In this document: positions 5,691 through 24,200 of the stretch, in pieces
Numbering within the stretch: the first letter of the stretch is position 1
Layout of the letters: each line of letters begins with the position of its first letter
Source of the DNA: an uncultured Eubacteriales bacterium
GTDB lineage: Bacteria > Bacillota > Clostridia > HGM11514
Direction of reading: 5' to 3'
Assembly (NCBI GenBank): GCA_902492655.1
Contig: CABUMF010000007.1
Coordinates: 1,191 to 65,190 of the forward strand
Length of the DNA: 64,000 nucleotides
The notes under the pieces: model-generated
Told to the model about the DNA's origin: nothing
Database searches by the model: none
What the model saw: the letters and a program-made list of their open reading frames with translations, nothing else
Translations under genes and position numbers: made by a program

Positions 5691-5704
5691 AGCTCTACCC
5701 CCTT

Positions 5705-6085
5705 CTACTTTGAATATTTCCGATATGCGCTGGTAAGTGCCTGTTGAGGCAAATCCTCGCTGAAAACATTATCCAAAAGCTCTTTTTTCATGTGATTTAC
5801 GCCCTTTTGCCGCAAAGCCGCAAGCCTAACCGCCTCGATGAGCCTTTGCGGCTCAACGCCTCTTGGGCAACGCTCCGAGCAGGCAAAGCAGGAAAGGCAC
5901 AAAAAGGACGCCTTCGACTTCAAAAGCGGCTCGATGTCCCCCGAAATTATCATGTCCGCGAACTGATGCGGATGATACTCCATTTTATGAAAGGAAGGGC
6001 AGGAAGCGGAGCATTTGCCGCACTTCATGCACTTTTCGGGGCTTGCGCCGCTGATTTTTATAAGCATATCCCTGTCAAATTGCAT
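5705..6085 (-). CDS. hdrC: Heterodisulfide reductase subunit C-like 4Fe-4S protein
   Basis: Two CxxCxxCxxxCP motifs (CGKCSASCP, CFACSERCP); start moved to internal ATG 6085 (MQFDRDML) which has GGAG RBS 8 nt upstream; track ORF starts at 6124. Confidence 0.7.
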   Translation of the reverse strand: MQFDRDMLIKISGASPEKCMKCGKCSASCPSFHKMEYHPHQFADMIISGDIEPLLKSKASFLCLSCFACSERCPRGVEPQRLIEAVRLAALRQKGVNHMKKELLDNVFSEDLPQQALTSAYRKYSK

Positions 6086-6161
6086 ATGTAAAACTCCAAT
6101 CCGCTCCGAAAAAGCCCGGAGCAAGGTAGCATGAGAAAATCCTTGTAAATTTTCGGGAAGG

Positions 6162-6950: not shown

Positions 6951-6974
6951 ACCTCCAAAAAAACTCTACCTTTT

Positions 6975-7003
6975 ATTATACAATAAAAAGCCTTTATTTG
7001 CAA
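6975..7003 (-). promoter_or_regulatory. Sigma-A-type promoter for hdr/flx operon: TTGCAA-17-TATAAT with TG extension
   Basis: Minus-strand read gives TTGCAAataaaggctttttattgTATAAT about 25 nt before GGAGG RBS of hdrB. Confidence 0.4.
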
Positions 7004-7035
7004 TAGCTTTCATAAAGAAAAGCCCGATTTTTTTG

Positions 7036-7066
7036 CATGAAAAAAGGCTCCCGTTTAAGAGAGCCT
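7036..7066 (-). terminator. Intrinsic terminator after 7075..7716 gene
   Basis: Hairpin aggctc..gagcct followed by U-run on minus strand. Confidence 0.4.
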
Positions 7067-7074
7067 AAATAACT

Positions 7075-7716
7075 TTACCTGCAAATGAAAATCCGTTCTG
7101 CGTCCTCCCCGGAAAGCTCGAAAATATCGGCAAAATCGTAGGAAACCGCAAACTGGCCGATAGCCCCGTCCTCACCGTAGGCGGTAACGGATGCGCAGGA
7201 AATGCCGTCAATTTCAACCGTGTCGCCGATTGAAAAAGCGATGTCCCCTTCCCAGCCCTTCATGCTCATGATGCTGCCGAAAACATCACGAATTGTCCAG
7301 GGAAGCTCGCCCCTTTCGATAACTACAGCCTTGCTTGCGTCATCGTAGGAAACAGAGCAGCCGATAGCCTCGGCAACCGCACGAATCGGCACGAAGGTTG
7401 TCCCGTTAATCACACGGACATGAGCACCGAGCTCTTTGACCTCGCCGTTGACGGTTATGTAATCGGTGTTATTTTTAAAAGTAACCTTTGTGGTGGAAAT
7501 CCATGCAACCACCGTCTGAGTGGAGCCGTACCAGTTGATTTCCGCACCGAACGCCTCTAAAATACTGCGAACGGGCACAAAAGCAACATCGTCCCAAATT
7601 TCGGAAGTAATATCAGTTTCAGTACCGTCAATTCTCACCGTCATGGCTGAAGCTGCTGTGAAAGCAGAAAAAACCAGAATGGCGGAAAGAACGAAAACCG
7701 CAATTTTCTTAAACAT
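7075..7716 (-). CDS. Secreted protein with copper amine oxidase N-terminal-like (stalk) domains
   Basis: Signal peptide MFKKIAVFVLSAILVFSAFTAASA; repeated VPIRAVAEAIG / VPVRSILEAFG motifs typical of Cu_amine_oxidN1 domain. Confidence 0.6.
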   Translation of the reverse strand: MFKKIAVFVLSAILVFSAFTAASAMTVRIDGTETDITSEIWDDVAFVPVRSILEAFGAEINWYGSTQTVVAWISTTKVTFKNNTDYITVNGEVKELGAHVRVINGTTFVPIRAVAEAIGCSVSYDDASKAVVIERGELPWTIRDVFGSIMSMKGWEGDIAFSIGDTVEIDGISCASVTAYGEDGAIGQFAVSYDFADIFELSGEDAERIFICR

Positions 7717-7772
7717 GTTACCCTCCTTTGGTATTTAACCAATTAATATAATACCAAAAAGCAAGGCAAAAA

Positions 7773-9005
7773 TCAACCTTTGTAACAGTTTTGTAATATC
7801 TTTTTTACACATTCGTCAATACTTCCGTTGTTTTCGACTGAAAAATCAGCAAATTGCACATATAAATCATGTCTTTTCTCATAAAGCTCAAAGACTGCCT
7901 CACGGCTTTTTGAAAGAGGTCTGCCGGAAAGGTCTAAGAGGTCGAGGTCACGGCTTATGTAAAAAATTCTGCCGTTTCGGTGGAGGCTTTTGTAGTTTTC
8001 GTGTTTTGTCACGATGCCGCCTCCGGTAGCTATAACCTTGCCCGAAAGCATACCGACAGTCCTTGCCACATCACCCTCAATCAGCCTGAAGCCCTCCTCG
8101 CCGAAGGCTTCAAAAAGCTTTGGAATTTCAGTGTTTTTCTGCTTTTCGATGTACTCGTCGGTGTCGATAAACTCCCTGCTAAGAAGCCTTGCCAGCTCCT
8201 GCCCTACAGTGGATTTTCCGCAGCCGGGCATACCGATAAGCACGATATTTTCCATTTCGGCATCGGTTTCGGATATGATTTTTTCAAAAAGCTCCTCCCC
8301 CGATTCCTTCCCGAAAAAGTGATCGTACGCATAAACGGCTTGAGCGGCGAGCATGGGAAGCCCCGACGTGCATTTGATCCCCAAAGCCTCCGCCTCCATA
8401 ATCAGCTCGGTTCTTACGGGGTTGTAAATCACATCAATCACGCCACTAAGCTTAGTAAACGGCTTAAGGGAAACGGGTGAATTTTCCACATTCGGGAACA
8501 TCCCCACAGGGGTTGTGTTAATTAAAACCTCGGCATCGTAGTGGCATTTTATGTTATCGTAATTCCATTCGCCGTGCCTTGAAACCGTCACAATTTCAGC
8601 ACTTTCGCTTAGCTCGCAGGCGGCACGGGCGGTGAGGCTTGTGCCTCCGCTCCCCAAAATCACGACCTTTTTGCCCGTAAGGGAGATGCCCGCACGCCTT
8701 GCCATGTAGAGAAAGCCTGCGATGTCGGTGTTGTAGCCGTAAAGCTTTCCGCCGAGGTTTACAACGGTGTTTACAGAGCCGATTTTTTCCGCCTCGGGTG
8801 AAATAAAGTCAAGAAACTCCATAGCGTCCTTTTTGTAAGGAATGGTAATGTTTATGCCCTTGAAATTCCGCTCCCCGAAGAACTGCGGCAGCCCTTCCCT
8901 TTCGATTTCGCAAAGCTCGTAGCTGTAATTTCCGATTTTTTTGTGTATAACTCCCGAGTAGCTGTGACCTAACTTTTCGCCGATAAGACCGTACTCCAAA
9001 ATCAC
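7773..9005 (-). CDS. aroE: Bifunctional shikimate dehydrogenase / shikimate kinase (AroE-AroK fusion)
   Basis: N-terminal AroE-like region (LIGEKLGHSYSGVIH...NVTIPYK) and C-terminal P-loop kinase IVLIGMPGCGKSTVGQELARLL. Confidence 0.8.
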   Translation of the reverse strand: MILEYGLIGEKLGHSYSGVIHKKIGNYSYELCEIEREGLPQFFGERNFKGINITIPYKKDAMEFLDFISPEAEKIGSVNTVVNLGGKLYGYNTDIAGFLYMARRAGISLTGKKVVILGSGGTSLTARAACELSESAEIVTVSRHGEWNYDNIKCHYDAEVLINTTPVGMFPNVENSPVSLKPFTKLSGVIDVIYNPVRTELIMEAEALGIKCTSGLPMLAAQAVYAYDHFFGKESGEELFEKIISETDAEMENIVLIGMPGCGKSTVGQELARLLSREFIDTDEYIEKQKNTEIPKLFEAFGEEGFRLIEGDVARTVGMLSGKVIATGGGIVTKHENYKSLHRNGRIFYISRDLDLLDLSGRPLSKSREAVFELYEKRHDLYVQFADFSVENNGSIDECVKKILQNCYKG

Positions 9006-10138
9006 ACCTCCGAATAGCTGCCGAGGTAAGAAAAGTCCATTTCCGCCTCAAGCTCCGAAAGAAGCCTGATAAGCTCGTCCGAGTAAACAGAAACATCCAT
9101 TTCGAGGTAGAACATGAACTCAAAATCCCTGTTTCTTATGGGGCGGCTTTCGATTTTTGTAAGGTTAATCCCGAGAGCCGCAAACTTTGACATAAGGTCG
9201 TAAAGAGAGCCGGGGCGGTGCGGAAGGCGCACGATTACGCTGATTTTGTCCGCTCCGGGGTAAATTTCGGGGTTCTTTGAAATGCAAATGAACTTGGTGT
9301 AGTTGTTGGAAAAGTCCTGAATATCCTCTGCGATAACCGACAGTGCGTAAAGCTCGGCGCAGATGCCCGAGGAGATTGCGGCGATGTCGCTTCTGTCGCT
9401 TTCCGCAACCATTTTTGCGGCGATAGCGGTGTTTTCGCAAACGGTGACCTTAATGTTTTTGTGCTCCGACAGGAATTTTTCGCACTGACCGATAGCCTGC
9501 TCGTGCGAGAAAACCTCCTTGATTTTTGAAATATCGGTTCCCTGTTTTGCAAGGAGGCAGTGGTTAATCTGAAGCCTGGAGCTTCTCACGATGCAGAATT
9601 TGTGGGAATCCATAAGGTCGTAAACCTCGCCCACACTGCCGTGAATGCTGTTTTCAACGGGCAGAATGCCGTATCTGCAAAGCCCGTGCTCCACCGCATC
9701 GAAAACGCTTCTGAAGGTATTCATGTACATAATCGTGGGGTTTTGGAACAGCTTGTCGCAGATTTGCTGAGAATACGCTCCTTCCGTACCCTGACAGGCA
9801 ACGGTTGCGGATGAGGGGAACATTTTATCGGTATTCTCGAGAGACTCTTTAATTCTTTTTGAGGTTTCGCTCTCGCCTCGAATTAAGCTACCCTGATAGG
9901 AGCGGCTGAGGTCAAAAAGCGTGTTGTAAAGCACTTTGAGATAGAGTGACATATCTTCGGGTTGCATAGCGGTAACACGAGCCACAACATCTCTTTCTCG
10001 GCTGCGGTTGAGTATCGGGAGATTGTTTTCCGCCTTGAATTTCGCCACCGAAGCGGCAAGCTCCATGCGCTTAACAAAGAGTGCGGAAAGCTCATCGTCG
10101 ACACTGTTAATCTGATTTCTGATTTCTTCAAGATTCAT
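9002..10138 (-). CDS. pheA: Chorismate mutase / prephenate dehydratase
   Basis: N-terminal CM domain (LEEIRNQINSVDDELSALFVKRMELA), PDT domain and C-terminal ACT domain; 4-nt overlap with aroE/K. Confidence 0.85.
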   Translation of the reverse strand: MNLEEIRNQINSVDDELSALFVKRMELAASVAKFKAENNLPILNRSRERDVVARVTAMQPEDMSLYLKVLYNTLFDLSRSYQGSLIRGESETSKRIKESLENTDKMFPSSATVACQGTEGAYSQQICDKLFQNPTIMYMNTFRSVFDAVEHGLCRYGILPVENSIHGSVGEVYDLMDSHKFCIVRSSRLQINHCLLAKQGTDISKIKEVFSHEQAIGQCEKFLSEHKNIKVTVCENTAIAAKMVAESDRSDIAAISSGICAELYALSVIAEDIQDFSNNYTKFICISKNPEIYPGADKISVIVRLPHRPGSLYDLMSKFAALGINLTKIESRPIRNRDFEFMFYLEMDVSVYSDELIRLLSELEAEMDFSYLGSYSEV

Positions 10139-11103
10139 TACAGTTCACATCCTTTAAGAATTGATATAGCCGCCGCCGATTCTATGGGCGGCAGTGCTCT
10201 GGGAACAATGCAGGGGTCATGGCGACCTCTGATTTCAAGCTCTGTGTTTTTCATAGCCTCGATGTCAACGGACATCTGTTTTTTTGCGATTGAAGGTGTA
10301 GGCTTAATCGCAACACGGAACACGATCGGCATACCGTCGGAAATTCCGCCCAGGATGCCGCCGCAGTTGTTGGTTCTGGTTAAAATTTTGCCGTCCGACA
10401 CGAAAAACTCATCGTTGTTTTCCGAGCCGTAGAGATTGCATGAAGCAAAGCCGGCGCCGAACTCAATACCCTTTACGGCAGGGATTCCGAAAACCTCTTT
10501 TGAAATAATGCTTTCAAGGCCGTCGGTGTACATACCGCCAAGCCCCGGGGGAACGCCGTCAATTCTGCACTCTGCGATACCGCCGACGGAATCGAGCTTT
10601 TGCCTTGCAAGGGTAATTTCGTCGAGCATATTCTCGCCGGAATTTCCGTGAATGGAAACGATTTTCGAGGAAACGGTAATCCCCCTTCTTTTAAGTATTT
10701 GAAGGGCGATGCCGCCTGCTATGCAGTACGGAGCGGTGAGCCTTCCGGAGAATGGACCGCCTCCGCTCATGTCGAGCTTTCCTCCGAATTTAACATACGC
10801 CGTGTAATCGGCGTGCCCGGGCCTCGGAACGATTTTGAGGTTTTGGTAGTCCTTAGACCGAACATTGGTGTTTTTGATAACCGCGCGAACCCTTCCGCAG
10901 ATTTTGCCGTCCTCGATTCCCTCCTCGAAAACCGGAAAATCCGCCTCCCGCCTCGGGGTTGAATATTGGCTGTTTCCGGGGGCACGGCGCTTTAGAAAAT
11001 CATAAAGCTCATCGAAATCCACGCTTTCCCCCGTCGGAAGTCCCTCGATAACACAGCCTATCTCCGGGCCGTGGGATGAGCCGAAAATTTTAATATTCAG
11101 CAT
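10138..11103 (-). CDS. aroC: Chorismate synthase
   Basis: MLNIKIFGSSHGPEIGCVIEGLPTGE start; start placed at ATG 11103 (GGAGGTG RBS 7 nt upstream) rather than track start 11229. Confidence 0.9.
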   Translation of the reverse strand: MLNIKIFGSSHGPEIGCVIEGLPTGESVDFDELYDFLKRRAPGNSQYSTPRREADFPVFEEGIEDGKICGRVRAVIKNTNVRSKDYQNLKIVPRPGHADYTAYVKFGGKLDMSGGGPFSGRLTAPYCIAGGIALQILKRRGITVSSKIVSIHGNSGENMLDEITLARQKLDSVGGIAECRIDGVPPGLGGMYTDGLESIISKEVFGIPAVKGIEFGAGFASCNLYGSENNDEFFVSDGKILTRTNNCGGILGGISDGMPIVFRVAIKPTPSIAKKQMSVDIEAMKNTELEIRGRHDPCIVPRALPPIESAAAISILKGCEL

Positions 11104-12283
11104 AAATTTCACCTCCGAGCGTTTTGAAATCGTCAAAAAATGAGGGGTAAGATTTGTCAGCCGCCTCAGCGCCGAGGATTTTAATTTCCCCGTCCGAAAT
11201 GACCGACGCAACGGCTGAAGCCATAACAATTCGGTGGTCGGAGTAGGAGTTTACAACTCCGCCAGAAAGCCTGCCGTTGCCGGTGATTTTCAAGGAATCA
11301 CCCAAAATTTCGGCTTTACCTCCGAGGGAGTTAATCATATCGGAAACCGAAACAAGCCTGTCGCTTTCCTTGAGCCTCAGCCTGCCTGCGTTTTTAAATA
11401 CCGTCACGCCCCGCTTTGAAGCCGCAACAACCGCAAGAGGCGGCACAAGGTCGGGGATTTCCGAAACATCGACCGTATCCTCCTTTGCGGCGGACAAAAA
11501 CGCCTTGTCGCCTTGGGTTGAGGCTATGTCAAGCCCCAAAACACGAACATCACAGCCACATTCGCAAGAAGCCAAAAAGAAAGCGGCATTAGACCAGTCC
11601 CCGTCACAGATTGTGCTTTTCGGGGACTTAAATTTCTGATTTCCGGGGATGAAATAGCCCGTATCCGTAAGCTTTATTTCGATACCGAAAAGGCGAAGGG
11701 TGTCTATCGTCATATCAACATACGCACCCGACTGTAGGGGCGAAAGAAGTGTAATTTTGCTGTCCTCACAGCAGGAGGGGAGTGCCATAAGAAGCCCCGA
11801 AATGTACTGGGAGCTTATATTTCCGTTAATTGAAAATTCTCCTCCCGTAAGCCTCCCCGAAACGCTCATGGGAAGGCTTTCGCTTGAAAACCGACAGCCG
11901 TGCTCCGCCATTTGGCGCACAAGGTCGGTAAAGGGCCTTGTGGGGAGCCTACCCTCGCCCGTCATTGTAAAGCCGTCTGAAAGGCAGGCGGCAACGGGGA
12001 GCAAAAACCTTGCTGTAGAGCCGCTTTCGCCGCAAAAAAGCTCGGGATTTTCGGGGGATTTCCCCATTTTTATCACAACCGAATCGGAATTTCTCAAAAC
12101 ATTTGCCCCCAAAGCGGAAACGCACCGCATGGTGGCTTCGATGTCCTTTGAAAAGCCATTTATGAAGATTTTCACAGGCTCCTCGCAAAGAGAAGCGCAA
12201 ATTATTTTTCGGTGGGCGTCGCTTTTTGAAGAAATTGCGCCTATCACGCCCGAAAGTTTTTTTGGTTTTACAGTCACATTCAT
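11090..12283 (-). CDS. aroA: 3-phosphoshikimate 1-carboxyvinyltransferase (EPSP synthase)
   Basis: 397 aa with typical EPSPS features (KSDAHRKII, GESGSTARFLLP). Confidence 0.9.
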   Translation of the reverse strand: MNVTVKPKKLSGVIGAISSKSDAHRKIICASLCEEPVKIFINGFSKDIEATMRCVSALGANVLRNSDSVVIKMGKSPENPELFCGESGSTARFLLPVAACLSDGFTMTGEGRLPTRPFTDLVRQMAEHGCRFSSESLPMSVSGRLTGGEFSINGNISSQYISGLLMALPSCCEDSKITLLSPLQSGAYVDMTIDTLRLFGIEIKLTDTGYFIPGNQKFKSPKSTICDGDWSNAAFFLASCECGCDVRVLGLDIASTQGDKAFLSAAKEDTVDVSEIPDLVPPLAVVAASKRGVTVFKNAGRLRLKESDRLVSVSDMINSLGGKAEILGDSLKITGNGRLSGGVVNSYSDHRIVMASAVASVISDGEIKILGAEAADKSYPSFFDDFKTLGGEIYAEY

Positions 12284-13311
12284 GCTTTCAGTCCTTTTGT
12301 CGTAAAGCTCAAAAGCCCGTCAACATTGATTTTTTTAAGCACGCACTTTCCGATTTTTTCGGGAACAACGAGGTTTATAAAATCCCCCTGCCTTTTTTTG
12401 TCGGACAGGGCTACACTGACAAGCTCCTCAGCCGAAAACTCGGTTGAAATTGGAAGACCGCAGGCAATGTTTGCATTGATAATTTTTTCTCTAGCCTCGC
12501 TGTTTTCGCCGGATGCAATCACCATGCCGATTGCAACTGCGTGCCCGTGAGTGATTTTGAAATCCGAAAGCTTTTCGATGGCGTGCCCCAATGTATGACC
12601 GAAATTAAGAAGCTGACGAAGCCCGGTGTCACGCTCGTCCTGCTCCACAACAAACGCCTTAAGCTCGATGCACCGCTTAACCACCGCTTCCGTGTCAAAC
12701 CTTCCTTTTGCAACGGTTTCAAAAAGCTCCTCATCGAAAATTGCGCCGTATTTGAGTGCCTCCGCAACGCCGTCGGCAAACACCTCTTTTGGAAGGGTTT
12801 TGAACGTGTCGCAGTCGCAGATACAAAGAATTGGCTGATAAAATGCGCCCATGAGGTTTTTTCCGGCATTGAGGTTGACAGCGGTTTTGCCGCCCACCGA
12901 GGAATCAATACCGGCAAGGAAGGTTGTGGGGATTTGAACAAAGTCGATACCCCGCAGGAAAAGTGCCGCCGCAAGCCCTGCCGTATCACCGCAAACTCCG
13001 CCGCCGAGGGCGATTGCGAGGTCGCTCCTTGTGATGTGCGCCTTCGCCATAGCCTCTAAGATTTCCGACAGCGTGGAAATATTTTTTGACTCCTCTCCGT
13101 TTTTGAAAACAAAGCTTTCCACCCGAAAGCCTGCGTCGGAGAAGGATTTTTCAACGGTTTTTCCGTAGAGCGGAAACACGATGTCATCGGAAATAATAAA
13201 CGCCTTGCAAGGCTTTTTTACGCTCTTTGTAAGCTCTCCCGCACGGCTCAGGAGTCCGTTTCCGATAACGCAGTCATATCCGCCTTGGACATTAACTCTG
13301 ACCTTTTGCAT
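12280..13311 (-). CDS. aroB: 3-dehydroquinate synthase
   Basis: 343 aa; GGGVCGDTAGLAAALFLRGIDFVQIPTT motif. Confidence 0.9.
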   Translation of the reverse strand: MQKVRVNVQGGYDCVIGNGLLSRAGELTKSVKKPCKAFIISDDIVFPLYGKTVEKSFSDAGFRVESFVFKNGEESKNISTLSEILEAMAKAHITRSDLAIALGGGVCGDTAGLAAALFLRGIDFVQIPTTFLAGIDSSVGGKTAVNLNAGKNLMGAFYQPILCICDCDTFKTLPKEVFADGVAEALKYGAIFDEELFETVAKGRFDTEAVVKRCIELKAFVVEQDERDTGLRQLLNFGHTLGHAIEKLSDFKITHGHAVAIGMVIASGENSEAREKIINANIACGLPISTEFSAEELVSVALSDKKRQGDFINLVVPEKIGKCVLKKINVDGLLSFTTKGLKA

Positions 13312-14140
13312 AACTTTTCTCCCCCTTCGAGATTTCCTCTTTTAAAATTCTGCCCTCAGCCAGAAGCCTAATAAGCTCCTCACGGTTTTCGCTTTGCAAG
13401 GCATCGGAATACTCCTTGAGGTGCGAAATAAGCAGGTCGATTTCATAGGTTAAGTTGTCGGCATTTTGCAAAAACAAATCCGCCCACATATTTTCGTTAA
13501 GCTTAGCAACCCTTGTTAAGTCCTTGAAGCTTCCTGCCGAAAAGCCGAAATGACGCTTGGCAGAAGGGGATTTCACAAACGCTCCCGATGCGATGTGGGC
13601 AAGCTGAGAGGTGTAGGCAATCATTTTGTCATGCTCCTCGGGGGTTGAAAACTGAAAATGCGAAAACCCAAGCTCCTTCATAAATGCCTCGTATTTATGA
13701 GGGATGGAGCTTCCCATAACAATAAGGGATGCGCCCTCAAAAAGACTGTCGGTTGAATATTCCGTGCCCCAGCATTCCTTGCCAGCCATGGGGTGTGCGC
13801 CAATAAATGTAAACCCGAATTTTTCGGCAAGCGGTGAGCAACAAGCACAAACCATGCGCTTTGTACCGCCGAAATCGGTAAAAATGGTGTTTTTCCCGAA
13901 CTTTGGGGCATACTTTTTTGCAAACTCCACCGTCAGATGCGGATAAAGGGCGGAAATAATTATGTCGCACCGACCGAAATTCCCTTCAAGCTCCCCCGAA
14001 ACAATACCCTTTTCGATACAGTCGGAGAGAACCTCGGGAAGATCGTAGCCCAGCACCTCATGACCGCATTTTGCGGCACGCTTAGCGGCAGATGCACCGA
14101 TAAGCCCGAGGCCTGCGATGCCGATAATCATAATCTGCAC
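13292..14140 (-). CDS. tyrA: Prephenate (or arogenate) dehydrogenase
   Basis: 282 aa; N-terminal Rossmann IGIAGLGLIGASAAKRA; TyrA fold. Confidence 0.8.
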   Translation of the reverse strand: MQIMIIGIAGLGLIGASAAKRAAKCGHEVLGYDLPEVLSDCIEKGIVSGELEGNFGRCDIIISALYPHLTVEFAKKYAPKFGKNTIFTDFGGTKRMVCACCSPLAEKFGFTFIGAHPMAGKECWGTEYSTDSLFEGASLIVMGSSIPHKYEAFMKELGFSHFQFSTPEEHDKMIAYTSQLAHIASGAFVKSPSAKRHFGFSAGSFKDLTRVAKLNENMWADLFLQNADNLTYEIDLLISHLKEYSDALQSENREELIRLLAEGRILKEEISKGEKSYAKGQS

Positions 14141-15135
14141 CTCAGGGGCAGAATTTTCTGAACCTTACCTGAAATTTCAGCGAACTGCTCGGGAGTAACC
14201 GACTGCGCACCGTCGCAAAGAGCGTGTGCAGGATCGTTGTGAACCTCGATGATAAGCCCGTCCGCACCGCAAGCAACCGACGCAAGAGCCATGGGAGCAA
14301 CAAGCTTGGCAACGCCTGTTGCGTGGCTCGGGTCAACGATAACCGGAAGGTGCGTCATGGTTCTGATGTAAGCAACGGAAGCCAAATCAAGAGTGTTTCT
14401 GGTAACTGTTTCAAAGGTTCTGATACCTCTTTCGCAGAGGATAACATTTTCGTTACCGCCTGCCATGATGTATTCTGCGCTCATAAGCCATTCCTGAACG
14501 GTGCTTGCAAGACCACGCTTTAAGAGGATAGGCTTATTGGTTTTGCCGAGCTCTTTGAGAAGCTCAAAGTTCTGCATATTTCTTGCGCCGACCTGTATAA
14601 TGTCCACATCGGAGAAAAGGTCGAGATGAGAAAGGTCCATAATTTCGGTAACAATGGGAAGTCCCGTTTCTTTCTTAGCCTCAAGAAGAAGCCTTATGCC
14701 CTCTCCACGAAGTCCCTGGAACGCATAGGGGGATGTTCTGGGCTTGAAAGCACCCCCACGGAGAGCCGATGCGCCTGCCGCCTTAACAGCCTTTGCGATG
14801 CCGATAATCTGCTCCTCGCTTTCAACGGAGCAAGGTCCTGCTATAATACCGAAGTTATCGCCGCCAAAAGATGCGCTGCCTGCGGAAACAACCGAATCGC
14901 CCGGGTGGAACTTTCTGTTTGCGTTTTTGTATGGCTCCTGAATTCTCTTGACATCATCGACAATATCGAGAGATTTGAGAAGATCCGCATCCAAATGGGA
15001 GGTATCGCCGATAAGTCCCATAATGGTTGTTTGAGCGCCCTCGCTTATGTGGATTTCCACATTGCTTTCCTTCAGCCAAGTCTTGAGGCTTTCAAGCTGG
15101 GCGGGATCGTAATCCTTTTTGAGCATTAAAATCAT
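14128..15135 (-). CDS. aroF: 3-deoxy-7-phosphoheptulonate (DAHP) synthase, type I-beta with N-terminal ferredoxin-like regulatory domain
   Basis: 335 aa; [11 protein letters not shown] and [16 protein letters not shown]-like core; about 80-aa N-terminal extension as in Thermotoga-type DAHPS. Confidence 0.85.
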
Positions 15136-15152
15136 ATTGTATCAAACTCCTT

Positions 15153-15189
15153 TGTAAAAAAATAAGAACCGCAATTATTTTGCGGTTCT
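15153..15189 (-). terminator. Attenuator terminator in aro operon leader (hairpin AGAACCGCA/TGCGGTTCT plus U7)
   Basis: 9-bp GC-rich stem, 6-nt loop, then UAUUUUUUU on the minus strand, only about 20 nt upstream of aroF RBS. Confidence 0.55.
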
Positions 15190-15219
15190 GTAAAAGCATG
15201 AATTAAAATAGTTATTATT

Positions 15220-15306
15220 TCATCTTTCAGCCATACCGCAATAAGCCTTACCGAAAAAGTAGGTAAAGCAATAAAAGTAGTATGTAGCTGAGTATGAATT
15301 GTTCAT
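15220..15306 (-). CDS. Candidate aro-operon leader peptide MNNSYSATYYFYCFTYFFGKAYCGMAER (6 Tyr + 4 Phe in 28 codons)
   Basis: Small ORF with GGAG RBS 7 nt upstream, between promoter and attenuator hairpin; not in ORF track (<60 aa). Confidence 0.45.
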   Translation of the reverse strand: MNNSYSATYYFYCFTYFFGKAYCGMAER

Positions 15307-15341
15307 AGCATTTCTCCGAAAATTAAAACTTAACTGTTTTT

Positions 15342-15370
15342 ATTTTAGCACAAAAAAATATGTTTGTCAA
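15342..15370 (-). promoter_or_regulatory. Promoter of aro operon leader: TTGACA-17-TAAAAT
   Basis: Minus strand TTGACAaacatatttttttgtgcTAAAAT. Confidence 0.45.
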
Positions 15371-15389
15371 CCCCCAAAATAAAAAAATA

Positions 15390-15430
15390 AGAGAACGCAA
15401 AAATTATTCTTTGCGTTCTCAAAACAGATA
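15390..15430 (-). terminator. Intrinsic terminator of the 879-aa surface protein gene
   Basis: Hairpin gagaacgcaaag..tttgcgttctc followed by U-run on minus strand right after stop at 15435. Confidence 0.5.
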
Positions 15431-15434
15431 AATA

Positions 15435-18017
15435 TTATTTTGTTACCATGAACGGTGTAAATGTGTATGTGCCTCTCTCTGTTATAGCGTCACCGAATAC
15501 TCTTACAGCAAAGCAGCCGTCTTGGGAAATGGTGTCAACGGGGAGCTCAATTGAATTTGTACCGTCGGATACCGTCACGCCTGCTTTTTCGAGCAATGCG
15601 GCATTGTAGTTGTCAATCTTCACATACTGGATGCAGTTGAATTCATTGTAGGTTGTGCCGTTCAGAATAAAGCTGTTGGAATTTTGTTTTTCGCCCAAAG
15701 AGATAGTAGGAGTTTTGGGAGTTACATCCTTAAAGGAAACCACCAAAGCCGCGTTTGCGTTAGGAGTAACCTTAATTACGCAAGCCTCGTCCACCTTAAC
15801 GGGAGTAACATCCTCGCCTGCGAAGGAAACAGCTTCAATTTCATAGCCCGAAGCCGGAGTAACTGCGATTTCGGCTTCAACGCCCTTTTCCAAAGTGATT
15901 GCATCGCCGTTTGCAACGTTTGCTCCGTCAACCTTAACCGAGCCGCCGTCTGAAATATTGGCGGAAACGGTAACCTCCTCGGAAAGGAATGTAATCTTAA
16001 CATCATCGAGGCAGATTTTAAGATTGCGAGCGTCAAGGAGTGCCTGAAGTCTTGTGGTAGCGGCAGCCTCATTCAAAACGCCGTCAACGGTATTTTCGTC
16101 GATAGCCTGTTTTGTGAGCTGATAGAGAACATGGCTTTCTTCCTTGCCCTGGTTCAGACCCTTAAACTCAAGCTGAAGATTTGCGACATCAATGGAAGAA
16201 ACGGACTCTGCACCGTCACGGGTTGTATGGATTTCAGTAGCCGTAAAGGTAGGCGCGGTAGCACTTCTCCAACCGTTCTCGCCCTCGTTTCCGGATGTAC
16301 TTACATAGAACTGAGTTCTCGGTGCACCAGCCGCTGCCCATGAACCCCAACCGGTATTAGCCCATTTATCAAGGCTTGCGCCGCTGAAGTTAAAGAAGGG
16401 CTGAGCCTGGCTTGCATTGCTCATATTTGTGCCGTTGTCCATGTACTTATACTTAAAGGAATATGTGTACTCTTTTCCTGCATTAACCTTAAATCCGGGA
16501 GCGCTTTTGGTAAATCTCGGATAGAAGTCAAAAACATCTTCCCTTACAACATTATTATTCACCTTTTTCCAAGCATTAATAAGAGTCTGTGCCTTAAAGT
16601 TCTTGATTACAATGTATGTGTTGCCGGTTTCATCGGTTTCAAAAGCACCTTCATAGCCGGAGGGGTTAATAACATTCCAGCCGTTAGTCAAGCTGCCTTC
16701 TTCATATGCATTAAAGTTATCGCTGAAAACAGTTACAGAACTCGGAACGGAAATATTAAGCGTACCGTCCGAAGTTATATCGGAGCCGGGGATAACAACC
16801 TTGTAAACGCCGTCTGAAAGTACAGGAGTAACGGCTGTGCCGTTGTATGTAACAGTCGGCTGATAAGCTGTGGTTATTTCGTATGTAGTGCCGAAGTAAT
16901 CGTTAACGGTAACCGTACCGCCGTTTGCCACGGCTGTAGATTCAGTGCACCCCGAGCCTGTGTTTGTGATAGCACGAACTGTAGCGTCGCCTTTAATTTT
17001 AACAGTGTCGGTATAATATGTGGTTTCTGCTGAGAAGGTGACATTATCTATACCGAAGCCGAAGTTTGCTTCTTCCATAACCTGTGCAAAAGCTGCGGAT
17101 CTCGTTGCGGATTTAAGAGCGGAGCAGTCCTCTCCGAGGCTCCATTCTCTGCAAAGCTGATCTTCTGTAAATGTACCGCCGTTAGCAACCAATCCTACCT
17201 CGTCGCCGTAGAGGTCACCGGGCTCGATAGTGAAGGTGTAACCTTCAAGAGGCTCCTCACCGCCTTTCCCATCTGCCTGGGTAAAGCCCGGTCCCACATA
17301 AGCCTTGTTGGCTATTAAAAGCTTAAGGAGGGCATCGTAAATACTAACCTCGAAGAAAAAGCTGTCGATAGTACCCACCGTACCGTTGGGAGCGGGAGTA
17401 GTATCTTTATCGGAAGTGGTCAGAAGATAGTTAAAGGGTTTTCCCGTATATCTTCTCCAACCGCTTGAAAGATTCTCCTGTGTCTGTTTTGCCCTATCAC
17501 CGGTATTGTTTTCGCCGGTGTAAGCTCCGAGCGATAAATAATACTGGTTAAAAGCGTTCCACTTATTACTTCTCCAACCGAGAATCTTGTTTGCGCCGGA
17601 CATACTATTGATACCCGAAGTACCTGCGTCCAAAGCGGAAACCGTACCTGCGGAAACCTTTGCAAGGTCCCAAGAAAGTGCGTATTTCTTTCCTGAGATG
17701 TAGGGTATTTTTTTACCCACTATGAGCCTGTAGGCAAGCACAACAAACGACCTTTTGTCTGCCGCGTCCGCTTTCGGGAGCGAAGCAAGCTCGTCCGGGT
17801 CGATTGACACGGCGCCGTACTTATTTCCGGTACCGTCGTCAAGAACGCTGTTAATCTTGCCGGCATCCGATGATTGCTTTACGCCGTCCTCAAAGTCTCT
17901 TAAAAAGACCGTGATTGTACCGGGAGTGCCTTCTGCGGAAACAGAAACCACGGAAAGGCTTGTAATGCAAGTCATAACCATGAGCATCGCCAGTACCAAG
18001 GATAAAGTTCTTTTCAT
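15435..18017 (-). CDS. Secreted multidomain protein (861 aa from ATG 18017) with the same unrecognised N-terminal domain A as the giant protein, Ig-like domains and an unrecognised C-terminal roughly 90-aa domain
   Basis: Signal peptide MKRTLSLVLAMLMVMTCITSLSVVSVSAEG; N-terminal roughly 400 aa similar to N-terminus of 18242..26971 protein; C-terminus similar to C-termini of 27269..28942 and 30071..31741 proteins. Confidence 0.7.
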   Translation of the reverse strand: MKRTLSLVLAMLMVMTCITSLSVVSVSAEGTPGTITVFLRDFEDGVKQSSDAGKINSVLDDGTGNKYGAVSIDPDELASLPKADAADKRSFVVLAYRLIVGKKIPYISGKKYALSWDLAKVSAGTVSALDAGTSGINSMSGANKILGWRSNKWNAFNQYYLSLGAYTGENNTGDRAKQTQENLSSGWRRYTGKPFNYLLTTSDKDTTPAPNGTVGTIDSFFFEVSIYDALLKLLIANKAYVGPGFTQADGKGGEEPLEGYTFTIEPGDLYGDEVGLVANGGTFTEDQLCREWSLGEDCSALKSATRSAAFAQVMEEANFGFGIDNVTFSAETTYYTDTVKIKGDATVRAITNTGSGCTESTAVANGGTVTVNDYFGTTYEITTAYQPTVTYNGTAVTPVLSDGVYKVVIPGSDITSDGTLNISVPSSVTVFSDNFNAYEEGSLTNGWNVINPSGYEGAFETDETGNTYIVIKNFKAQTLINAWKKVNNNVVREDVFDFYPRFTKSAPGFKVNAGKEYTYSFKYKYMDNGTNMSNASQAQPFFNFSGASLDKWANTGWGSWAAAGAPRTQFYVSTSGNEGENGWRSATAPTFTATEIHTTRDGAESVSSIDVANLQLEFKGLNQGKEESHVLYQLTKQAIDENTVDGVLNEAAATTRLQALLDARNLKICLDDVKITFLSEEVTVSANISDGGSVKVDGANVANGDAITLEKGVEAEIAVTPASGYEIEAVSFAGEDVTPVKVDEACVIKVTPNANAALVVSFKDVTPKTPTISLGEKQNSNSFILNGTTYNEFNCIQYVKIDNYNAALLEKAGVTVSDGTNSIELPVDTISQDGCFAVRVFGDAITERGTYTFTPFMVTK
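16880..18017. repeat. About 1.1 kb DNA repeat (copy 1) shared with 25862..26971
   Basis: Long stretches of near-identical nucleotide sequence (e.g. ggtagtatctttatcggaagtggtcagaagatagttaaagggttttcccgtatatcttctccaaccgcttgaaag vs ctgtagcggaagtggtcagaagatagttaaagggttttcccgtatatcttctccaaccgcttgaaag). Confidence 0.6.
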
Positions 18018-18178
18018 GAATATATCTCTCCATTTCAAAAAATTTGGCATCACACCATATTTAAATTTTAACATATTCTCCGCTTATTTTCAATATTTTC
18101 CCCAAAGAATTATTGCACAAATATTTCAATCATTTTTTGTGCATAACGACCAAGAAGGGCATAATAAAGATAAGAAGC

Positions 18179-18211
18179 GAACCGCCCGGGGGGGTTTCCC
18201 GGGGCGGTTCG
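18179..18211 (-). terminator. Terminator of giant surface protein gene
   Basis: GC-rich hairpin gaaccgcccgggggg..ccggggcggttc immediately after stop 18242. Confidence 0.4.
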
Positions 18212-18241
18212 CGAAAGAAGTTTTGAATACTAAAATTTTAA

Positions 18242-21200
18242 TTATTTAACCAATCTGTAGATAAGGCTTGCCGCCTGAGCACGGGTTGCGTTGGCGTTCG
18301 GTGCGAACGTACCGTCACCCATACCGGAGATAAGACCTACCGAGGAAGCCGTATCAACAGCCGCCTTAGCCCACTTTGCTATATCAGCCTTGTCGGAGAA
18401 TGCTTCGATACCGCCGTTAGCGCCTGCCTTACCAAGGTAAGAGTAAGCGTTCACGATGATAACAGCCATTTCCTGACGGGTGATGTTATCGTTCGGTCTG
18501 AAGTAGCCGTCAAAGCCTGTGATAATGCCTGCATCTGCGCAAGCGCCCACATAAGGAGCGAACCATTCGCCGTTTACATCCTTGAAGGAAGCTTCCTTAT
18601 CGGGGAGCTTGAGAGCTCTTGCGATAATAGCGGCAAATTCTGCTCTTGTGATGTTGCGGTCAGGTTCAAAGAGGTTGTCGGAAACGCCCGAAACAATACC
18701 TGCCTTGTTCATAGCCACAACCTCAGCCTTAGCCCAGTGGTTAACCATGTCGATAAACGGATTGTCGGCATTGGGGCTTGTGGTGCTTCCGGAGAAGAAG
18801 CCGTTGCTTCCCGTACCTGCACCGCCGCCGTTTACGGCAACTCCGCCGATTGCTCCTCCGGGGCCTTGACTTTCTTCATTGGAATTATTTACGCTTACCT
18901 GGAATATAACAAACTCCGTAATGAAGTTAGACCATATAACAAGGTCATCGCCGACATTAAGTTTCGCCGCACCTAAGCCTTCGCCTATAGCAGCCTGAGC
19001 CGAAGCTGCGGAATCCTCCTCAGCCTTTGTCTTAATCTCGACATACTTGCCCGTTTCATCCTTGTAGTAAATTCTCTTGCCCTTAGCGCCGGGGAATGAG
19101 AATCTTACAAGAGCGTCGGAAGTTATAAACTCATCGCCCGTCGAGTAAACACCCTCAACCGTTATAGCATTTGAAGGCAGAGCTCCGCTTGGTGATTCTA
19201 AGAAATGCGGAGGGGTGAAATATGAGAACAGTTCATTGCCGGTAAATTCAGCAGCTTCGGGTACATCCATTGTTGCCGGACCTTTCGGGGTATCAACTCG
19301 CGCTTTTATTCTTGGAAGAGGTTTGCCGTTTTCCATTTGGAGCGTAAGCTTAGCGTTGTTGCTTACCACAAATTCAGCATTTCTGATATCGTAGTTGATT
19401 TTATAAATCGTATCGCCGGTAACATCAGCGCTGCTGTTTGCGCTTTCCTTAGCTGCAGCAAGAGCCTGATTTATAACAAGCGTCTGTCTGTCAACCGCAA
19501 TCTGGGTTGTAAGCTCGTCGGCTGCAACTTCCTTACCGTCGGAAACAGCCTTATTGAGAGCTTCAATCTTATCTGCGGGATACTGACCGTAATCGCTTCC
19601 TATCTTAGCAAGTTTGAGGAATGCTTCAGCGCCTGCGATAGCCGTGTTAAGACCTTCATAATCCACAACAGCGGGAGAAATCACAACATTGATGTTGGAT
19701 GCCTCTTGCGTGTGGTTAGCAAAGCCGAGAGCACCTACCTTACCTAAGAGTGCAGTTCCGTAGGTCTCGTCATAAACGAGCACGCCGTCAACATAGATAA
19801 GAAGTCTTACGCCCTCTGTGGTATCAACCGCACCGAAAGCGATTTCGTAATCCTTACCGAATTCGGTAAAGAATGTGTTGTCAGCGGAATAGAACGGAGT
19901 TGTCTGTTCGGGCTTCCATTCCTGAGCCTCATATGTGTCGTTGTGGAACCACATAAGGAATCCGGAATTACCGTTAGCCCAAATCTGACCGTTATAGCCG
20001 TTGGATCTTACATATGTTGCAGCCTGGAGAATATGAGCCTCATCGCCGGGGATCTTGGTTACGCCGGAATCGTCGGTGAGTTCAAATCTCATTCTGAATG
20101 TGAATATCTTGTTAAGGTAAAGCTCATCGGTGTAAAGAACCTTTGTCTGAGCAGGGATTGTGAGAGTACCGTTTTCAAATACAGCCGCACCACCCTGTGC
20201 ATAGGTCCAGCCGTCTTTATCAGCCAGCATATCCTTAATGTTAAGGTATTCCAATGTTGAAATCTGCGCAAGCTTAAATGCGTCGATAGCATTCTTAAGA
20301 GCACGAACTGCGTTGTTCACTTCGTACTGATAAACGTTGTTATTAGCGAACACATCAGCGGCACTATTAAATTCAGTCTTGAATTTAGCGAGAGCCTCTG
20401 CGGGATACATACCGTCTCCCTCACCAACAACCGCGGACTTAATGAGAGCGTCAGCCGTTTCGAGAAGCTCGGAAAGCTCACTCTTGTCAACAGCGGAGGA
20501 ACCTGCGGAAATCTGAATAGGAGCAGATTCAATCATTTTGCCGTAGCGGTTATCCTTATCGTAAGGAATCATTGTGTACTTAACGAATTTACCTGCCTGG
20601 AGCTCAGAGAGGAGAATTTCGTTGTCGCCCTTGCCGAGGATTCTCGTATAAGGACCTTTCTCGCTTTCAGCCTCGTACCATACAAATACCGAGTGACCTT
20701 CGGGATCGCCGTCGGGATCGGAGTAAGAGTAAGAAGCCTTCAATATTCCGCCGACCGCAGGGTTACCGATAATCTTAGCGTCGGCAGCCTTGGGAGCGTA
20801 GCCTGTGCAGTAATCGTCATAACCTACGCCGATTGTGCTTGTGTCGATGTTTTCAAAGCCCGTTGCGGACTTTCTAACCTCTGCAAGACCTTCCTCTGTA
20901 AGAGAGAAGTCCTTACCGTAGTCCTTGAAGATAGACTTTCCGTTTACAACGTCGGTTGAGGAAGCGTAGTTATTTGAAACAACCTCGTTTCCGGTACGGG
21001 AAATACCCTCGGGTCTGTTCTTCAGGTTCTTGATATTTACGTTGTTATCGAATGTGTTTGACTGAGACGGAGCGAAGGTTTTAACATATTTAACCATTCC
21101 GTCATAGTCCTTAGCGTTTGCGAAAGCGAACATCTTTTCAGCTTTTTCCGAAGAGAAGTTACTGAAGAAGGGTTCCCAAATAGTTCCCTTGTAGTGTTCG

Positions 21201-24200
21201 ATCCAGGCTTCGTTTTCGCAGTAGTTCTTAATCTTGTTCCACTGAGAGCCGTTTACATTAAATGTCCAGTTGCCGGCAGAGCCCGAAGGCTTGCAGTCAT
21301 AGTTATAGGTAATGTACTGACCCTGCGTGGGAGAGTCGAAATTCGTTCCAACCCATGACTGGAAGTAGTTCGAGCAAGGATTGTCAACAAAAATGTTGTT
21401 GTGAACGTTGTAATACTGACCGCCGTTAGTCTTAATCGGGTAAGAGGAGGTGGAGCCGCCTCTGTCCTCGGTAAGAGTTGCGCGGTAGAAAATATTGTTG
21501 TAGATGTCGGCACCGAAGTTACCGTCATCGCCGAATATCGACTGGTTCCAGCCGCCGTTGTAGAGGTTACCGTTATCGTGGAAGTAGTTGTTCCTGATTA
21601 CGATACCAAGTACCGACGGGTCACGGCCCCAGTAGATAGCGCCCATATCGCCGTGTTCCTTAACGGAGTTGTAGATTTCGTTGTATTCCATAACATGATC
21701 GTTACCGCCGAAGGAAATAGCCTCATGCTGGTTGTTGTAGATGATGTTATGAGAAACCAAAACGCCTACGCCGTTCATGGCAACAGCGGGAGAATATGAA
21801 GTTTTGGTTCTTGCGTTATCCGAGAAAATGCTGTTGCTTACAACATTGTTGCTCTGTGTCAGTGTTTTTCTGTCGCCTCCGCCGATTGAAATACCGCCGT
21901 AGCCTGTATCGTAAACATGGCACTTGTCAACGGTGATGTTGTAACCGGAGAGGGATGCGGCATTTGAACCGCCGTGAGCCATAACGCTGTCACGGAAAGT
22001 AATGTGATTTCCGTTATTAACATTGATAAATCTTTCCCTTGAATTTCTGAAGTTGATGCCGTCAAATGTGATATAAGAAGCACCGTTCATAGAAATCATG
22101 GAGCCGGTGTATGTTGAAAGCTCAACATCCTCGGTACCATCTATGGGATTTGTGGGATAGAAGTAAGCAATCTTTCTTTCCCTGTCGATGAAGCTTTCGC
22201 CGGGCATATCAATTTCCTCAAGAATGTTGAAGAAATAGAGCGGTAAACCGCCTGCGGTCTGATAGGAAGTACCGTACTTTGTCATAAACGACTTGTCGGT
22301 TGCATCTATAGAGCCTATCTTATAAATATTTGAGTACCAATGGTAGGCAACATGGAGGTCAACCATACCGTCATCAACAACAGCCTGAGTATTCCAGAGA
22401 GCAGTTCTGTTTTCGGGATCGGGGTAGCCAACCTTTGAAGGCTGAGTCTTATCTGCGCAAACAACTCTTTCGGAATTAATCATAGCCGTGTCGGGCTCAT
22501 CGTTGGGCCATCTTGCGTCGATGAGGCGTTCGTTGTTGACAATAAGATCCATTGCACGCCAACTGTTTGTGAATATAGGCGAGCCGTTGCTGTTCCAGCC
22601 GTATTCGGGGATAGACGGAATTACGCCTTTGTATTCGGAGAGGTCAATCTTATAAAGATTAGCTCTTGCCTGGTCGTCAATGATTCTGTCGAGAATCTTG
22701 TTGCCGTACTTATCCTTATCATCCTCGGTAACCTTTGAAATCTTGTTAGCCGAGATTTTCTGTGAGCCTACAAAGTCAACCTCTTCGTTGTTGTAAGCCT
22801 TGTAAACGATAGTAGTGTTTTCGTTACCGGAATCAGAGGCTGTGAAGGTGATAGCCGAGGTAATGGGGTATCTTCCTTCTCTGAAGTAAACAGTTACCTC
22901 GCCTGCCGGAAGAGCCTGAGCGGCGATCATAGCCTTGATTTTTTCCTTAGCCGGTGTAATTGTAGCGAAAGGCTTACCCATTGAACCGTCGCCTGTTGAA
23001 TCGTTACCGTTTGGAGCAACGAAGAATGCAAGCTCGCCTACAAAGAAGGGAGTTGAAGGCACATTCTTCCAAATGTTTCCTGCCACACTCTTAGCTGTAA
23101 CAACCGCTCTTATGTTCTTGGCGTTGTCGGAAGCCTTTGTAACATAAGTCTTGCCGGTTGCGCCTTCGATGTCTTCCCAAACCTCGCCGTTAAGTACCTG
23201 CCATTTTATCGTGGAATCGTCAGCGTCCTTACAGGAATAATCATAGCTTACTGTAAGAGTAGAGCCGATTTCCTTATTTCCCGTAACCTTAACGTTTGAA
23301 ACAACGGGAGTAGCATCGGTAATTGTTTCGATGTCGATTACAAGCTCTTTTGCGGCGATTTTGTTTGCGGGGATTGTAAACTCAAGAACCGAAGGATCTT
23401 CAAGATTAATTTCCTCGCCGCCGAAGGTAATGGATTTAACGGAATCGTTTGCATCGCCCGTAAGCTTAATGGAAGCCTTAAGTCCGTAGTAATCGTTAGC
23501 CGAAACGGTGCCGTTTGCGGTAAGCTTAACAGTTTCGTTTGTATAAGTATTTGTTGTGAAAGTAACCTCAGCGTTTCCGTTAATTTTAACGGGGATGTTG
23601 TAGAATGCGGCATCAGCCTTCATTTCAACATCGTCCATCTGAAGCTCAAGCCCTGCATCCTCGAAAGCCTTGTTGATAGCGGCTTCACGCTTAGCGGATT
23701 TAAGAGGTGAGCAATCCATGCCGAAGTTCCATTCCTTGCAAAGCTCTGCTCTTGTAAATTTACCGCCGTTTTCCTTAAGACCTTCCTCGTCGCCGTAGAG
23801 GTCGGAATCGGTTATGGTGAACTTATAAGAGTCTGCATTTTTTAAGCCTTCGCCCATGTAAGCCTTGTTTTCAACCAAAAGCTTTGTGATTGCATTATAG
23901 AAGTTCGACTGCATAAACAAGCCGTTGATTGTAGCGGAAGGAATATCGCTTTCGCCGTCCCACAAGCCGTAGGAAATACCGCTGTAGCCTACAGTTTGCC
24001 AGCCCGTAGCGGAGTCATAAGCAGAAACGCTCTTAATAGTTGACGAGCCTTCCTGGGTGTTGTGCTGACCGTACCACTGACTTGTTTTAACGGGGGTAGA
24101 GCCGTTATAAGTCTTAAGGTAGCCGCCGCTCATAGCGTTAAAGCCGGAAGAACCCTTGACGATAGAGAAGTAATCGCCGTTGTTAACGCCTCTGTACTTC

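Follow-up and report, generated by a model that had tools for sequence, protein, structure and literature searches.

A predicted tyrosine/phenylalanine leader-peptide attenuator upstream of the aroF operon in an uncultured Eubacteriales bacterium and its Clostridial relatives

In Escherichia coli, the pheA attenuator (pheL, RF01859) and the trp and his attenuators consist of a promoter, a short open reading frame (ORF) that is led by a Shine-Dalgarno (SD) sequence and is rich in codons for the end product, alternative 1:2, 2:3 and 3:4 helices, and an intrinsic terminator upstream of the first structural gene (PMC3082878, PMC11802643). Here we describe a leader with the same parts in a 64,000-nucleotide (nt) stretch of DNA from an uncultured Eubacteriales bacterium (GenBank assembly GCA_902492655.1, contig CABUMF010000007.1, positions 1,191 to 65,190), the whole of which we call the window. 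The sequence of this leader indicates that it is very probably a classical ribosome-mediated (leader-peptide) transcription attenuator of an aroF-tyrA-aroB-aroA-aroC-pheA-aroE/K operon. The pheL peptide contains codons for Phe only and controls pheA alone, whereas the window leader contains codons for both Tyr and Phe and precedes genes for the common aromatic pathway and both branches. Phe_leader is proteobacterial and the window host is Clostridial. The Rfam model of Phe_leader scored 19.5 bits (gathering score 55; E=1.4) on the terminator region alone (15219..15159), and with no detectable homology the likeness is a functional analogy.

The closest functional precedent, one with experimental support, is aroR-aroF of Corynebacterium glutamicum, in which a leader peptide with the residues Phe-Tyr-Phe precedes an operon starting with the 3-deoxy-D-arabino-heptulosonate 7-phosphate (DAHP) synthase gene aroF and ribosome stalling raises transcription (Neshat et al. 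2014, as summarized in PMC11802643). In that summary the response is to limitation for Phe, not for Tyr. The aroR peptide is actinobacterial and is described as having only the Phe-Tyr-Phe triplet, whereas eight of ten residues are aromatic in the window and Tyr and Phe are equally frequent in the family; the likeness, taken from this description, is one of function. A second comparison is the uORFC-13-1 motif, a predicted upstream ORF and terminator before aroF that is proposed to sense Phe via translation speed (PMC8632094). It comprises 24 sequences from Acholeplasma and unassigned environmental DNA, and its U-run encodes "at least one" Phe (PMC8632094). Compared by description only, it shares with the window the upstream ORF and terminator before aroF in a Firmicutes-related lineage, but Tyr is not mentioned there.

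Within the Firmicutes, "regular" leader peptides were first noted for hisS/hisZ (PMC2965389), and His attenuators have been predicted in 17 genomes, including those of Peptostreptococcaceae (PMC9413887). These leaders (hisS/hisZ and the his operon in the B. cereus group; Peptostreptococcaceae and Erysipelotrichales) are predicted cases in the same phylum of classical attenuation where a T-box would be expected (PMC2965389, PMC9413887). They differ from the window leader in amino acid, operons and sequences and are known from few genomes, whereas the aro leader occurs in most of 153 usable Clostridial loci. Tyr, Phe and Trp T-boxes and TRAP in Bacillus and Clostridium have the same task of linking aromatic amino acid supply, read as tRNA charging or as Trp, to a leader terminator. 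Their sensor is an RNA-tRNA or protein-RNA contact, whereas the proposed sensor in the window is the translating ribosome. A previous reading of this DNA made from the sequence alone (the sequence-only reading) remarked that leader-peptide attenuation is unusual in Firmicutes, and this is fair, as it has been reported only sporadically there (PMC2965389, PMC9413887). The literature searched contained no account of a Tyr/Phe leader before aroF in Clostridia, which is no proof of absence overall. The kind of element is known, and the family appears to be new, set apart from uORFC-13-1 and aroR by their descriptions only.

Anatomy of the leader and its predicted switch

The leader lies between a gene encoding 879 amino acids (aa) (15435..18074) and aroF. 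Unless noted, coordinates here and below are on the minus strand of the window. The upstream gene is separated from the aro leader by a terminator (15420..15391) with a 13-pair stem followed by a T-run, and the leader accordingly has a promoter to itself. This promoter, of the sigma-70 type, is present where the sequence-only reading had placed it, at 15370..15342, with TTGACA at 15370..15365, a 17-nt spacer, TAAAAT at 15347..15342 and a TG-extended -10. It matches 11 of 12 consensus positions and scores best among the promoter-like sites of the 14-kb stretch scanned (5000..19000); transcription would start near 15335. The leader ORF (15306..15220) starts with ATG at 15306, 7 nt downstream of the SD sequence GGAG (15317..15314), and has 28 codons followed by TGA (15222..15220) to encode MNNSYSATYYFYCFTYFFGKAYCGMAER. 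Codons 9-18 (15282..15253) encode YYFYCFTYFF, in which eight of the ten residues are Tyr or Phe; stalling is proposed to occur at these codons if charged tRNA-Tyr or tRNA-Phe runs short. Everything that had been claimed of the promoter and the ORF could be read off the minus strand, except that the distance of about 25 nt from promoter to ORF holds for the SD sequence (counted from the -10) and not for the ATG, which is 36 nt past the -10. In a scan of the whole window, other leader-peptide-like ORFs were found only within coding regions.

The RNA structures of the leader overlap this ORF. Hairpin P1 (15269..15245) is formed by GCUUUACC (15269..15262) and GGUAAGGC (15252..15245) around a 9-nt loop and is the core of the 1:2, or anti-antiterminator, structure; it might possibly also act as an RNA polymerase pause hairpin. 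It is the additional hairpin that had been noticed within the peptide-coding region, and covariation supports it. A further helix, P0, is seen in the minimum-energy fold and in the model alignment. Its 5' strand CAGCU (15290..15286) belongs to region 1 and pairs with GGCUG (15232..15228), immediately 3' of region 2. Region 2, the antiterminator 5' strand UUGCGGU (15241..15235), lies in codons Tyr22-Cys23-Gly24. Region 3, ACCGCAA (15186..15180), is common to the antiterminator, where its partner is 15241..15235, and to the 5' arm of the terminator. This intrinsic terminator (15189..15156, -13.8 kcal/mol), the attenuator proper, has a 10-bp stem of arms AGAACCGCAA (15189..15180) and UUGCGGUUCU (15174..15165), the loop AAUAA and then UAUUUUUUU (15164..15156). 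A strong terminator before aroF had been claimed and is there, but it does not end about 20 nt before the ribosome-binding site: its U-run ends at 15156, which leaves about 5 nt to the aroF SD sequence GGAG (15150..15147) and about 20 nt to the aroF ATG (15135). The 200-nt leader folds with -48.3 kcal/mol (z = -4.4 against shuffled sequences), and P1, P0 and the terminator are all present together in the full-length minimum-energy fold. We also observed a second promoter-like site (15158..15131; TTTACA, 16 nt, TATGAT, 10 of 12 matches) that overlaps the terminator U-run and the aroF start. If active, this site may provide basal aroF expression independent of the attenuator, or it may be a chance match in AT-rich DNA.

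The proposed mechanism, in which the geometry of the ribosome footprint and the response in the cell are predictions of the model, is as follows. Once the RNA has started near 15335, a ribosome would begin to translate the 28-codon leader. During a shortage of charged tRNA-Tyr or tRNA-Phe, this ribosome would stall in codons 9-18 and cover region 1 (the 5' strands of P0 and P1), leaving UUGCGGU (15241..15235) free to pair with ACCGCAA (15186..15180) as soon as the latter is transcribed. The terminator stem would then not form and the polymerase would enter aroF. With both amino acids in ample supply, the ribosome would reach the UGA at 15222 and cover or unwind region 2 and the hairpin nested in the antiterminator. 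The terminator (15189..15156) would form after leader translation is completed, and transcription would end some 20 nt short of the aroF start codon. Tyr and Phe codons are mixed and balanced in the leader, so lack of either amino acid should derepress the whole operon (OR logic). From its codons, the leader is not predicted to sense Trp.

Several features of the window fit this switch. UUGCGGU is identical to the first 7 nt of the terminator 3' arm and is complementary to ACCGCAA, giving an antiterminator of seven contiguous pairs with -11.0 kcal/mol. The family sequence at this place is UAU-UUC-GGU and that of the window is UAU-UGC-GGU, and the single U-to-G difference completes the match to the window's own terminator arm. 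For folding, we assumed that a ribosome covers positions -15 to +12 relative to the A-site codon. In transcripts that end before the terminator 3' arm, the UUGCGGU:ACCGCAA pairing forms with the ribosome on any of codons 9-18, enclosing a nested hairpin that contains the stop codon, and it is lost with the ribosome on the UGA. The pairing between the YCGM codons and the ACCGCAA arm that the sequence-only reading had put forward was thus recovered by folding without the terminator 3' arm, and the homologous pairing shows compensatory changes. The segment left free by a stalled ribosome (15252..15175) folds with -18.4 kcal/mol (z = -2.9). The P1 5' arm (15269..15262) falls within the Tyr/Phe run. 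The placement of the stop codon fits less clearly: region 2 is 12-20 nt 5' of the UGA, where the assumed footprint covers its 3' part, and among homologues its position relative to the stop ranges from -43 to +51.

Conservation and covariation among Clostridial aroF loci

We fetched loci by AroF, 80 from species-representative genomes (78 usable) and 80 from metagenomes (75 usable), labelled L001-L160. The genome loci include Clostridia such as Oscillospiraceae, Lachnospiraceae, Acutalibacteraceae, Christensenellaceae, Anaerovoracaceae, Oscillibacter valericigenes and Angelakisella massiliensis. We scored as a leader any ORF that opens with ATG, lies no more than 300 nt upstream of aroF and has a 10-residue stretch in which 6 or more residues are aromatic. 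Such ORFs were found in 61 of the 78 genome loci and in none of the 78 on the reverse complement; dinucleotide shuffles lead one to expect 1.1 such loci. This was replicated in the metagenome loci (58 of 75, and 0 on the reverse complement), so that the two sets combined have a leader ORF in 119 of 153 usable aroF loci and none on the opposite strand. The conservation of the Tyr/Phe-rich peptide on which the sequence-only reading had placed weight is therefore found. In the best 10-residue windows of 64 leaders (640 positions) there are 224 Tyr, 224 Phe and 5 Trp, and 57 of the 64 leaders have at least two Tyr plus at least two Phe. The codons in these windows are UAC (132), UAU (92), UUU (187) and UUC (37), both synonyms of each amino acid being used. 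An SD-like motif precedes 50 of the 64 scored leader starts, compared with 31% of other ATGs in the same regions. The ATG, the SD-like motif and the use of both synonymous codons suggest that what is conserved is a translated frame rich in two amino acids rather than a nucleotide repeat.

A strong intrinsic terminator follows the ORF in 59 of 64 leader-bearing loci from genomes and in 47 of 49 from metagenomes, mostly 15-55 nt past the ORF stop, and the gene order aroF>tyrA>aroB>aroA recurs among the leader-bearing loci. The peptide is about 14 to 43 residues long when the most compact ATG-started leader ORFs are taken. There are two or more leader architectures in the family. In long leaders of the window type (about 25-43 codons, with an "F(S/C)FT..GKA" motif), the ORF contains region 2. 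Short leaders (about 14-22 codons, such as MKSIFVFAYYYYFTMDS and MNSSASFSFYYYYFFTRKK) have their stop codon in the 1:2 hairpin or just 5' of it, and their region 2, U-rich and "UUUGYGCUGCA"-like, comes after the stop.

Covariation was observed in three helices. In the family, P1 takes the form of AGCUUUACC paired with GGUAAGGCU, with 91.7% of alignment cells paired in 20 sequences and 94.7% in 36 sequences. Five of its pairs show compensatory changes (for instance ACC/GGU to GCC/GGC to GCU/AGC), and 0 of 500 shuffles scored as high. Such changes substitute residues of the peptide (Thr to Ala, Gly to Ser) and retain the pairing, so that the conserved "FT..GKA" motif mirrors RNA structure and not peptide function. 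A nascent-peptide arrest sequence acting through the "GKA" or "AAEY" motifs was considered and rejected: the codons of these motifs form P1 and P0, and the residues vary while the pairing stays. The terminator is 92.9% paired, with compensatory changes in 7 of 11 pairs. In an 18-sequence subfamily, 11 nt after P1 (consensus CGGUUUGGCUG, codons F-G-L-A) pair with the terminator, from the distal part of its 5' arm across the loop to the first base of its 3' arm. This antiterminator has 93.8% of cells paired and four pairs with compensatory changes; 0 of 500 shuffles scored as high, and no more than 58% of cells were paired when the register was slid. Its complementarity extends into the terminator loop, which the terminator stem by itself would not bring about. 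The antiterminator and terminator have alignment columns 95-99 and 106 in common and are therefore mutually exclusive. The trp/phe/his-type architecture proposed for the window accordingly has its structural parts in place, in a design that is conserved and co-varies in related genomes.

The pairing of cognate regions points the same way across both sets. Duplexes between region 2 and the terminator 5' arm plus loop (2:3) had on average -14.9 kcal/mol for cognate and -10.6 kcal/mol for non-cognate combinations in the genome set, with a median cognate rank of 5 of 59 (permutation p ≤ 5e-5), and this was replicated in the metagenome set (-16.2 against -12.0 kcal/mol; median rank 4 of 47; p ≤ 5e-5). 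For 1:2 duplexes, with region 1 taken as the aromatic codons and the preceding 15 nt, the averages were -18.8 and -13.3 kcal/mol (n = 105, p ≤ 5e-5). In truncated folds across loci, the mean paired fraction of the terminator 5' arm was 0.69 with a stalled ribosome, 0.57 with the ribosome at the stop and 0.60 when free (Wilcoxon p about 1e-5), a shift that is modest because the 5' arm pairs promiscuously. We also built a covariance model, R1, from 36 homologous leaders excluding the window. Searched against the 64-kb window it gave a single match, at 15300..15200 (67.5 bits, E=1.6e-11), and in the two locus sets it gave 30 and 26 matches, all 56 directly upstream of aroF. R1 picks up mainly the long-leader class. 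No family in NCBIfam or Pfam matched the leader peptides. In public protein sets homologous peptides are listed only as "hypothetical protein" or "Uncharacterised protein", some of them on at least 1000 contigs.

Some of the leaderless loci are labelled Bacteroidaceae, Alloprevotella or Spirochaetia, and in others a coding region apparently ends just 5' of aroF. AroF proteins 65-68% identical to that of the window occur in non-Clostridial metagenome-assembled genomes (MAGs) labelled Victivallales (L070), Bacteroidaceae/Alloprevotella (L045, L051 and L060) and Spirochaetes (L046 and L058). The Bacteroidales and spirochaete loci have no leader. The Victivallales-labelled contig has an aromatic-rich ORF, MNRNYWRYLYTYSYRFYFRTGSGIAVS, with no terminator detected. 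The AroF or leader in such MAGs may be due to horizontal transfer or to binning error. The Ruminococcaceae MAG ERR1190762-bin.8 contains two aroF paralogues. That of L073 is preceded by a Phe-rich leader ORF; that of L074 has no leader, and a T-box (93.6 bits, 5259..5503) lies about 1.3 kb downstream of it. Thus, both regulatory styles coexist in one genome.

Weighing the attenuator against other explanations

Several results weigh against a ribosome-mediated attenuator, above all in the window itself. The antiterminator duplex of the window is equalled by 2.85% of dinucleotide shuffles and is modestly above chance, and region 2 ranks its own terminator only 57th of 105 among the terminators of other loci. 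P0 is only 66.5% paired in the family, which is weak support, and in folds of the window P1 and P0 sequester region 2 only in part. The truncated transcript forms the antiterminator without a ribosome as well; given this and the weakness of P0, the trp-like behavior in which no translation means termination is not predicted here. The sequence-only reading had expected mutually exclusive terminator and antiterminator structures upon folding. The truncated transcript does form the antiterminator, but the equilibrium fold of the full leader always prefers the terminator, and in partition-function folds of full leaders with the ribosome masked at each Tyr or Phe codon or at the stop, the terminator wins in nearly all loci. 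With equilibrium favoring the terminator regardless of the ribosome, the switch would have to be kinetic, as in trp. In Bacillus subtilis, transcription and translation are reportedly largely uncoupled; if this is so here too, a ribosome-timed switch would depend on polymerase pausing. Lastly, the genome and metagenome contigs searched contain no relative of the window AroF with >73% identity.

T-boxes are the usual regulators of aromatic amino acid genes in Firmicutes (PMC2965389, PMC9413887), and one occurs near the aroF paralogue of L074, making it reasonable to ask whether a T-box or metabolite riboswitch controls the operon and the small ORF is incidental, as the sequence-only reading had recognized. 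This explanation is largely refuted and we give it almost no credence. With Rfam 15 at gathering thresholds nothing was found on the leader, and the T-box model (RF00230) had no match in the window at its gathering score or in 14900..15600 at E ≤ 10. No T-box or riboswitch model matched the leader at either level, nor was there such a match upstream of aroF in 20 related loci. At E ≤ 10, Phe_leader was the one Rfam match with a related theme. In the leader of about 180 nt, ORF, 1:2 hairpin, antiterminator and terminator leave almost no room, and there is no specifier-loop or T-box-like element. A protein of the TRAP or PyrR type that binds UAC/UUU triplets in an untranslated leader would account for a regulatory region that is a run of similar triplets, and Firmicutes do use such proteins, as with TRAP on (G/U)AG repeats (PMC3064811). 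It is nonetheless a very unlikely explanation: the in-frame ATG in 119 of the 153 loci and the excess of SD-like motifs before it point to translation, the codon counts given above show that the class of amino acid is conserved and not the triplet, and triplet number and spacing vary freely among loci. No candidate gene for a binding protein was identified.

The recurrence of the peptide in gene predictions, in which homologues appear as hypothetical proteins on so many contigs, could mean that it is a functional small hydrophobic peptide or a chance ORF, with a hairpin that is either a leaky terminator acting constitutively or a stabilizing structure. We regard this as highly improbable. Conserved residues outside the aromatic run coincide with RNA helices in which residues change and pairing is kept, and peptide length varies about threefold (14 to 43 residues). 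The ORF is always directly 5' of aroF, and the apical loop of the terminator that comes after it co-varies with the 3' part of the ORF; a separate peptide gene would not account for this. A further alternative to specific sensing of Tyr and Phe is that a translated, termination-controlling leader serves as a general sensor of translation speed, as in the antibiotic-sensing leaders of bmrCD and vmlR, or exerts control mainly through Rho or mRNA stability. Ribosome-mediated attenuators of Bacillus respond to translation inhibitors (PMC4191407, PMC9226507), and our thermodynamic model separates the ribosome states only modestly. However, about 70% of the residues in the leader windows are Tyr or Phe, in equal numbers, before an operon for the synthesis of precisely these two, and Trp is nearly absent from leaders whose operon has no trp genes; we consider a general sensor very improbable. 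A leader-peptide attenuator specific for Tyr and Phe remains the explanation that we favor.

Beyond the window, it is rather likely, although with less confidence than we place in the attenuator itself, that transcription of the common aromatic pathway in gut and rumen Clostridia (Oscillospiraceae, Lachnospiraceae, Christensenellaceae and Anaerovoracaceae) is governed mainly by a large family of dual Tyr/Phe-sensing leaders, which would take the place of the T-box with an RNA switch almost wholly inside the leader coding sequence. If true, ribosome-timed attenuation, and hence functional coupling or pause-based synchrony of ribosome and polymerase, would be routine in these Firmicutes. The leader would also provide a concrete model of how Tyr and Phe synthesis is controlled in many abundant gut and rumen Clostridia that are mostly uncultured and have no characterized regulators. 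It would be a widespread and well-supported case of classical attenuation in a phylum where T-boxes and RNA-binding proteins count as the norm, and a natural sensor in which one peptide reads two amino acids. For annotation, a recurrent small "hypothetical protein" can be flagged as a putative regulatory leader that the covariance model finds. The mechanism is a textbook one, which limits the conceptual surprise, and it is the breadth of the family and the comparative evidence that make the annotation worthwhile.

The aro operon and its neighborhood

The genes under the predicted control of the leader span 7773..15135, as assigned from NCBIfam and the ORF list. In order of transcription, NCBIfam identifies aroF (DAHP synthase, 14128..15135), tyrA (prephenate dehydrogenase, 13292..14140), aroB (3-dehydroquinate synthase, 12280..13311), aroA (5-enolpyruvylshikimate-3-phosphate synthase, 11090..12283), aroC (chorismate synthase, 10138..about 11100), pheA (a chorismate mutase-prephenate dehydratase fusion, 9002..10138) and an aroE-aroK fusion (shikimate dehydrogenase-shikimate kinase, 410 aa, 7773..9005). 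These assignments agree with the earlier description of the operon as encoding the common aromatic pathway and the Tyr and Phe branches; trp genes are absent from it. The aroC ORF as listed starts with TTG at 11229 and overlaps aroA by about 140 nt, so the true aroC start is probably further downstream. The operon has no gene for 3-dehydroquinate dehydratase (aroD/aroQ), and this step must therefore be encoded elsewhere. AroF aligns over its full length, including an N-terminal extension of about 70 residues, to the PDB chains 1RZM/3PG9. These we take to be the Thermotoga enzyme that is inhibited allosterically by Tyr/Phe.

Directly 3' of aroE/K is an ORF of 213 aa (7075..7716) with a domain like the N-terminal domain of copper amine oxidase (PF07833, E=2.5e-24). 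A promoter-like site of its own (7776..7748) and a downstream terminator (7066..7045) flank this ORF. The sole Rfam match at gathering level in the window is a tRNA-Ser(GGA) gene (41884..41973). Upstream of the leader are the 879-aa ORF, for which neither NCBIfam nor Pfam gave a match, and an ORF of 2909 aa (18242..26971); both look like large surface or secreted proteins.

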